Of a stretch of DNA of 31,938 nucleotides, positions 30,880-31,152 are shown one piece after another. The notes beneath the pieces are model-generated. The model was given only the letters and a program-made list of their open reading frames with translations, was not told the DNA's origin and searched no databases. This DNA is from a virus. The stretch lies in the UHGV virus genome UHGV-0224535. One strand, given 5' to 3'. Position 1 is the stretch's first letter. The number at the start of each line of letters is the position of its first letter. Both the position numbers and the translations under genes were made by a program.

Positions 30880-30905
30880 CCCCGCTTTGCGCGGGGTTTT
30901 CTTTT
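30880..30905. terminator. bidirectional terminator (CCCCGC-TTTGC-GCGGGG; T-runs on both strands) between convergent gpJ and the lipoprotein gene
   Basis: Read directly. Confidence 0.65.
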
Positions 30906-31152
30906 AGTAGTTAGCTACACAATTCGACGGGCTACCGATGCGGCGCATATTGTGATCTAGTTCATGACACCATTGACCAGTATATGGAAGTTTTTCAGTG
31001 TCATAGACAAGATGACCATTAGCATCATAGACAATTTCTTGAGGAATTACTCCGCTATTTGGCAGGTTGTGCAATGCAGCATCTTTGTCAACAGCACAAC
31101 CAGTAAGAGCAACAGCCGCAGCGAATAATACCACTTTGAGCATGTTTTTCAT
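30904..31152 (-). CDS. small lipoprotein (lipobox LTGC), candidate superinfection-exclusion protein (Cor/Llp-like by position)
   Basis: MKNMLKVVLFAAAVALTGCAV signal with lipobox; convergent, immediately downstream of gpJ. Confidence 0.65.
   Translation of the reverse strand: MKNMLKVVLFAAAVALTGCAVDKDAALHNLPNSGVIPQEIVYDANGHLVYDTEKLPYTGQWCHELDHNMRRIGSPSNCVANY

Follow-up and report, generated by a model that had tools for sequence, protein, structure and literature searches.

The stretch of DNA analysed here (the window) comprises 31,938 nucleotides of the virus genome UHGV-0224535 and as a whole falls in the mEpimmI group of Nus-dependent, non-lambdoid temperate coliphages. Towards its end, the gene for a gpJ-like tail protein converges with a small gene on the opposite strand, which is separated by a divergent intergenic region of 177 nt from a side tail-fibre gene (Table 1). 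The small ORF runs over 82 codons from an ATG start to a TAG stop, and its product begins with MKNMLKVVLFAAAVALTGC and continues with AVDK... at the mature N-terminus. We recognized lipoproteins by a basic n-region, a hydrophobic h-region and a [LVI][ASTVI][GAS]C lipobox within the first ~35 residues. All these elements are found here: MKNMLK supplies the n-region, VVLFAAAVA the h-region and L16-T17-G18-C19 the lipobox, such that two lysines are followed by ten uncharged residues and then the lipobox itself. A six-frame scan of the 32-kb window for such signals (802 candidate starts, products of at least 40 aa) returned only two loci, namely this ORF and the Rz1 spanin at 6122..6316. The codon differences are predominantly synonymous both against mEp010 (13 synonymous, 7 non-synonymous) and against MagusPhagus (11 synonymous, 4 non-synonymous). 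Hence, the 82-aa opposite-strand lipoprotein with an LTGC lipobox that an earlier note had read from the bare sequence is confirmed as a real gene.

Table 1. Features at the gpJ/lipoprotein locus, numbered from the first nucleotide of the window
Feature	Position	Strand	Basis or remark
gpJ-like central tail fibre / tail-tip protein, 1482 aa	26425..30873	+	Homology to lambda J
Distal ~195 aa of gpJ, knob and receptor-binding tip	30288..30873	+	End of collinearity with L015 and mEp021
Two-way intrinsic terminator hairpin of gpJ and the lipoprotein gene	30878..30898	both	Scan and folding
Lipoprotein gene, very probably for exclusion; 82-aa precursor	30904..31152	-	PHROG 12984; Lpp010 orthologue; mEpimmI type-C Lpp
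Mature lipoprotein, 64 aa	30907..31098	-	Alignments; Cys19 is the lipid anchor
Signal peptide, residues 1-18, up to L-T-G before Cys19	31099..31152	-	Read from the sequence
Shine-Dalgarno-like GGGG, 8 nt 5' of the ATG	31161..31164	-	GAGG in relatives
38-aa ORF, MLINLVILPFCDLCY...	31198..31314	-	Hypothetical protein in mEp010, mEp013 and MagusPhagus
Conserved part of the divergent intergenic region	31228..31329		97% identical to the DNA upstream of cor in L015
Weak candidate sigma-70 promoter, TTTACC, 16 nt, TGtTACATT (extended -10)	31267..31294	-	Best relaxed match
Side tail-fibre gene, 5' part, running off the window end	31330..31938	+	PHROG tail-fibre families, E = 3e-40

In the mature lipoprotein, a variable tether spans residues 20-30 and is followed by a conserved core at residues 31-82, whose two cysteines, C62 and C78, probably form a disulfide. 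Scans of the protein with Pfam, NCBIfam and PADLOC, Bor included, gave nothing above noise, and a profile of its family searched against all PDB sequences gave only chance matches (E of 0.46 and 0.83). AlphaFold2 models of the precursor and the mature form, each built with 24-25 homologues, reached pLDDT values of just 57.6 and 52.0, so a comparison of the fold with Llp or other proteins is not meaningful. The authors of the Llp study report that free Llp is likewise modelled poorly by AlphaFold2 (PMC9586334).

The stop codons of gpJ and the lipoprotein gene lie 30 nt apart, and the gap between them holds a hairpin of 8 bp with six GC pairs, flanked by a T-run on either strand. Both directions give a terminator score (dG -15.1 and -17.7 kcal/mol), and the hairpin folds better than shuffled sequence (z of -3.4 and -5.3); the annotations of mEp010 and mEp013 also list this terminator. 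The convergent arrangement with a shared bidirectional terminator, as described in the earlier note, is thereby upheld; only the left boundary given there, 30880, needs correction, since it falls inside the hairpin and the gene begins at 30904.

The window gpJ is 38% identical to lambda J over ~900 aa and 76-77% identical to the J proteins of mEp010 and mEp021 over the first ~1230-1250 aa (first BLASTP segments). A product of identical length at three other loci (L009, L011 and L012) has Pfam GpJ domains. The distal part follows a different pattern of relationships: the last 140 aa show 46-48% full-length identity to the J tips of the phages Bas21, Bas23 and Bas24, whereas lambda J can be aligned only through the proximal knob, its last ~110 aa being unalignable. 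Against mEp010, the identity is 58% over the last 260 aa and far lower over the last 130. The last ~130 residues of gpJ come in two related subtypes: one is found in the window, MagusPhagus, Bas21, Bas23, Bas24, CAjan, Seurat and EP23, and the other, with 67-70% mutual identity, in mEp010, mEp013, mEp044, mEp554, Bas22, 9g and HK97. In HK97 (19031..19239; L018), the tip is of the mEp010 LamB type at 70% identity, and the spacing between J and stf is 207 nt, which leaves no room for a lipoprotein gene; the pairing of LamB tip and lipoprotein is therefore not obligatory. A DNA segment of the proximal gpJ cassette (30244..30485) is 75% identical to the virulent Seuratvirus KurtStettler (6520..6761 of L005), a match which suggests that temperate and virulent phages exchange tip modules. 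A separate source of variation is the coiled-coil repeat region of gpJ (28900..29800, aa ~830-1190), whose repeats match one another within the gene and which varies in length among otherwise near-identical prophages, gpJ being 1482, 1525/1526, 1504, 1707 or 1727 aa long across them.

Comparison with sister prophages delimits an exchangeable block around the lipoprotein gene. The window is collinear with the prophage L015 of E. coli M15, which occupies the same chromosomal site, up to 30287 and again from 31228; with mEp021, the collinearity stops at 30286 and resumes at 31242. The intervening ~940 bp (30288..31227) encode the distal ~195 aa of gpJ and the lipoprotein, include the terminator and the ribosome-binding site of the lipoprotein gene, and are replaced as a block in these sisters. 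In L015, the replacement (4556..6000) carries a short J end, two forward ORFs (phrog_557 and phrog_425) and, on the opposite strand, a genuine cor gene (phrog_1119, E = 1.2e-22). In mEp021 (9264..10726 of L004), it carries a gene for the virion protein gp80 (phrog_1265) and one for the type-A lipoprotein gp81, which shows no similarity to the window lipoprotein and which, when expressed, excludes OmpA-dependent phages (PMC11893012). Judging from these alignments, three solutions to receptor recognition, each with its own exclusion lipoprotein, fill one slot behind the same upstream DNA. The argument from gene position made in the earlier note is borne out in that a genuine cor occupies exactly the same slot, with the same upstream DNA, in the E. 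coli M15 prophage. Because the whole cassette is swapped, the lipoprotein appears to be functionally tied to the choice of receptor, and this is the strongest evidence at the sequence level. We read the lipoprotein gene as travelling with the receptor-binding tip of gpJ in one cassette and as behaving there like an independent unit, equipped with start signals and a terminator of its own and oriented against the direction of the late operon.

The DNA upstream of the lipoprotein gene is strongly conserved, with a mean column identity of 94% among four aligned phages over 31100..31345 (gene starts included), and its central part is common to prophages with different exclusion cassettes. A standard promoter scan upstream of the lipoprotein gene found none, and a relaxed scan yielded no convincing sigma-70 promoter; the best relaxed match (extended -10 at 31267..31275, TTTACC at 31289..31294) falls short of the cut-off used in the standard scan, and neither its TG nor its -10 is conserved in MagusPhagus or mEp010. 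The lipoprotein promoter is presumed to lie within the conserved intergenic part, and we infer that the gene is expressed from the prophage. The same region contains a 14-nt palindrome (31229..31242; TTGATTTATATCAA on the minus strand), which sits exactly between the cassette junctions seen against L015 (31228) and mEp021 (31242) and could be a regulator-binding site or a recombination hotspot. The 38-aa ORF that overlaps it was considered as a partner gene and judged a probable over-call: its DNA is AT-rich, is also present upstream of cor in L015, and resembles conserved regulatory DNA more than a gene.

Elsewhere in the window, a lysis cassette (5435..6384) encodes an endolysin (5435..5926) and an Rz-like i-spanin (5914..6384), with the Rz1-like o-spanin lipoprotein embedded in the latter. 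Two clusters of small minus-strand ORFs (21412..22422 and 23384..24489) interrupt the forward tail module between the tape-measure gene and gpL; at the equivalent place, mEp021 carries an antirepressor-like gene along with small hypothetical ones, and these clusters are probably further morons.

The window lipoprotein matches phrog_12984 ("lipoprotein") with E = 2.4e-27 over residues 7-82, and by its sequence it is a member of this family, to which the type-C Lpp proteins from mEpimmI phages belong. The family comprises 27 clusters in a collection of 5.8 billion proteins. Nineteen positions, the lipobox Cys19 among them, are invariant in 25 homologues, and C62 is nearly so; the invariant residues (C19, P31-N32-S33-G34-V35, T58-G59-Q60-W61, N77-C78 and Y82) are all present in the window protein. 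A tblastn search with the latter matched 44 of 50,697 phage records. The closest are MagusPhagus (95% identity) and mEp010, mEp013, mEp044 and mEp554 (89-91.5%), followed by Seuratvirus, Nonagvirus, Dhillonvirus and a few phages of Cronobacter, Enterobacter and Salmonella, where the identity of 59-77% pertains to core residues 30/31-82. The homologues from virulent phages of the E. coli group, again over residues 30/31-82 only, are 69-77% identical. The exact window protein occurs in 191 blocks of public assemblies in a larger assembly collection, always between the gpJ and tail-fibre genes, at the prophage end that adjoins zntB, dbpA and ttcA; the window itself is 99.98% identical to one such locus (GCA_012876315.1). 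Among 5426 complete E. coli genomes, by comparison, ~13 hold a recognizable DNA copy and none an identical one.

The association of this family with particular gpJ tips was evident in several collections. Searches with the J tips also listed 39 of the 40 lipoprotein-bearing records among the matches listed (44 in all), and the J tips of the lipoprotein-bearing records among those matches all fall in one of the two LamB-associated subtypes; at six loci, a J gene adjoining the lipoprotein gene was confirmed directly. In IMG/VR, a convergent gpJ end of either subtype lies 35-65 nt from the homologue in 29 of 31 loci, and the two exceptions are a divergent variant that lacks a lipobox and does not adjoin J. 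A divergent branch of the family (MKKLIAVVAILLCTNAFANTNEPNSGVIP...; L047 2941..3159, L048 and P0026) is without a canonical lipobox and away from gpJ, and may represent a soluble periplasmic form. Another unusual locus is that of a lambdoid prophage in E. coli O68:H12 strain 97.3 (L016 5037..5534), where a gpJ tip of the mEp010 type is followed by a convergent chimeric lipoprotein gene, Seuratvirus-like at the N-terminus and mEp-like at the C-terminus of its product. Its last 140 nt, terminator included, are 93% identical to the window. Ile stands at the expected start codon, and RefSeq annotates an implausible 165-aa ORF; the gene may be a pseudogene or have a non-canonical start.

The function of the family comes into view through an orthologue. 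Negrete-Mendez et al. (2025) sorted the mEpimmI lipoproteins into sequence types and found by spot assays that plasmid-expressed gp116 of mEp010 (Lpp010, type C) excludes mEp010, mEp044, mEp554 and lambda; it does not exclude mEp013 (PMC11893012). In the same study, mEp010, mEp013, mEp044 and mEp554 were found to need LamB, and mEp021 and mEp515 OmpA (PMC11893012). The window lipoprotein is 91.5% identical to Lpp010 over 82 aa (59/64 in the mature part). The seven substitutions (M4V, L5F, D26E, E40D, I41V, A45G and N46S) are two changes in the signal peptide and five conservative ones in the mature protein, with identity from residue 47 to the C-terminus. Since exclusion was published in 2025 for an orthologue this close, from the same phage group, the activity as such counts as already known; it also agrees with a general rule of the BASEL papers, in which small siphoviruses encode exclusion factors beside J or the receptor-binding locus. 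Because the window gpJ tip is of the Bas21/EP23 subtype and not of the mEp010 subtype, the step from Lpp010 to exclusion of the window phage by its own lipoprotein is an extrapolation.

The receptor data fit one and the same target. LamB is the terminal receptor of the phages GottfriedDienst (Bas21), KurtStettler (Bas22), WildeMaa (Bas23) and SeppeHuegi (Bas24) according to the BASEL S5 table, and together with mEp010, mEp013, mEp044 and mEp554 this makes LamB the receptor of all eight receptor-typed carriers of the family. The LptD-dependent Seuratvirus phages Bas20 and Bas25 showed no lipoprotein homologue among the tblastn matches listed. Moreover, near-identical lipoprotein alleles occur with both gpJ tip subtypes, which fits a lipoprotein directed against the receptor and not the tip, and lambda is excluded despite an unrelated J tip, which points to a change in the shared receptor. 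Since the LamB-dependent mEp013 escapes Lpp010, LamB would be altered rather than removed or fully masked. On this evidence, we regard it as very probable that the product of this gene is a small exclusion lipoprotein whose specificity is for the maltoporin LamB, the receptor that the phage itself uses.

In the mechanism we propose, the precursor would, after its export, receive a lipid on Cys19 and be cleaved by signal peptidase II. Residue +2 is Ala (Ala, Gly, Ser or Thr in homologues, never Asp), for which reason sorting to the outer membrane is predicted; the Lol pathway would thus place the lipoprotein in the inner leaflet of that membrane, facing the periplasm. From there the conserved 52-residue core, probably stapled by C62-C78, would bind LamB from the periplasmic side and alter the surface recognized by gpJ tips, such that infection by LamB-dependent phages, lambda included, could no longer begin. 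A lysogen would thereby be shielded against phages that need LamB, and in lytic growth progeny would be kept from being wasted on infected cells and debris. What is established directly is how the gene is built, its homology, its linkage with the gpJ tip and the exclusion by the orthologue Lpp010; we infer the outer-membrane location, the direct binding of LamB and the stage that is blocked; the jamming of the receptor is likewise suggested by the correlation with LamB taken together with the precedents of Llp and Rtp45. The literature searched yielded no binding, adsorption or localisation data for any member of the type-C Lpp family and no account of its molecular mechanism on LamB.

The main competing account is that exclusion acts after adsorption, with the opening of the tail tip, the insertion of the tape-measure channel or the passage of DNA across the outer membrane being blocked, and not the binding of gpJ to LamB. 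The only published assay of Lpp010 is spot plating, which cannot separate adsorption from injection, and the escape of mEp013 means that LamB is evidently present and usable. Set against this, both Llp and Rtp45 prevent attachment of the receptor-binding protein, the lipoprotein gene co-varies with the type of receptor and not with the tape-measure or tail-tip genes, and the exclusion of lambda, though the last part of its J cannot be aligned, is most easily explained by a changed shared receptor. We consider a post-adsorption block unlikely. Far less probable still is a role outside exclusion, be it as a host-fitness moron (e.g., Bor-like serum resistance), a second spanin or an accessory of tail assembly, although roles other than exclusion are known for many prophage lipoproteins encoded between late genes. 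The protein had no match in Pfam, NCBIfam or PADLOC, Bor included; the spanin role is already filled by Rz/Rz1 (5914..6384); and the plasmid-borne orthologue Lpp010 alone suffices for phage exclusion. A contribution to host fitness also makes little sense because the family is found in the strictly virulent Seuratvirus and Dhillonvirus.

From position and lipoprotein character only, the earlier note had proposed an exclusion lipoprotein of the Cor/Llp type that inactivates the receptor of its own phage. The functional half of this proposal is supported by Lpp010; membership in the Cor/Llp sequence families, with a block of FhuA as in T1, phi80, HK022 or T5, is not, and the receptor indicated is LamB rather than FhuA. 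The slot, the small size, the lipobox and the cysteine pair are shared with these proteins, and hhalign gives a probability of 90% against full-length HK022 Cor. We rejected this match as a sign of homology, as it comes from the signal peptide and lipobox and the mature parts do not align: mature Cor and the mature window lipoprotein yield no BLASTP alignment at E <= 100. The Cor family, PHROG 1119, reaches the window protein only with E = 0.16 in the signal peptide (residues 4-22), as opposed to the 1.2e-22 of the true Cor in L015. Mature T5 Llp scores an hhalign probability of 0.15% against the family profile, and the profile search of the PDB did not reach the Llp entries 8a60 and 7qjf at E <= 10 although they were in the set; no PDB chain was reached in the copy searched. 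All typed carriers, moreover, use LamB. Membership in the Cor or Llp family is refuted at the level of sequence, and we leave it hardly any probability at all. A homology search, which the earlier note had named as a check, thus led to the exclusion lipoprotein Lpp010 and not to Cor or Llp.

With LamB exclusion as the favoured reading, the annotation of this gene can be changed from "hypothetical protein" to LamB-type superinfection-exclusion lipoprotein (type-C Lpp), and the lipoprotein and gpJ tip together predict the use of LamB by the window prophage. The locus also illustrates how siphoviruses of enterobacteria, temperate and virulent alike, exchange a compact cassette in which a receptor-binding tip is combined with its matching receptor blocker. 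Lysogens with this cassette should resist lambda-like and other LamB-dependent phages, which bears on the choice of phages for therapy and on host range in the gut. We see about even chances that these proteins would be the first family of exclusion lipoproteins shown to jam a plug-less trimeric diffusion porin, LamB, from the periplasm by reshaping its extracellular loops. If LamB is indeed jammed, even such unrelated tips as those of lambda and mEp010 would be shut out while that of mEp013 would still pass; the lipoprotein would then be a natural tool for mapping the LamB loops read by each tip, and its sequence alone would predict the use of LamB in uncharacterized siphoviruses and prophages. 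The action of the lipoprotein on LamB would be a worthwhile structural target.

Among known systems, the closest is Lpp010 itself, from the same phage group, with the same slot between J and tail-fibre genes, the same terminator and length, and an identical lipobox; it differs in adjoining a gpJ tip of the other LamB-associated subtype. The unnamed lipoproteins of Bas21-24, CAjan, Seurat, 9g and EP23 are also encoded convergently after J and share the lipobox and the cysteine pair. The carriers in Seuratvirus, Nonagvirus and Dhillonvirus, however, are virulent, and their tether is shorter (CGNGxNTGK as against CAVDKDAALHNL in the window protein); in EP23 the gene is unannotated. Cor of HK022, phi80, N15 and T1 is likewise a small exclusion lipoprotein encoded in the same slot, but it is specific for FhuA, is unrelated in its mature sequence and contains an AGYPFNxxWVS region that has no counterpart in the window protein. 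The gene for T5 Llp, too, is a small lipoprotein gene beside that of the receptor-binding protein. Its product has one internal disulfide and inactivates the phage's own receptor FhuA from the periplasmic side (FhuA-Llp, PDB 8a60; PMC9586334). This target is a TonB-dependent transporter on which Llp acts via the plug domain, whereas LamB is a trimeric diffusion channel without a plug. Rtp45 of phage Rtp (PDB 9RPS) attaches to LptDE on the periplasmic side, where its binding displaces loops 4 and 5 of the receptor (PMC12685063). It parallels the protein proposed here as a ~6 kDa disulfide lipoprotein encoded downstream of J whose receptor is not a TonB-dependent transporter; it differs in that its target is LptD and that the receptor-binding protein is a separate gene, as opposed to a tip within gpJ in the window. 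Llp and Rtp45 thus both are proteins of ~6-7 kDa with one disulfide that bind their receptor on its periplasmic face and cause the extracellular loops to rearrange (PMC9586334, PMC12685063). The window lipoprotein would resemble Cor, Llp and Rtp45 in its action while standing outside the Cor and Llp sequence families.
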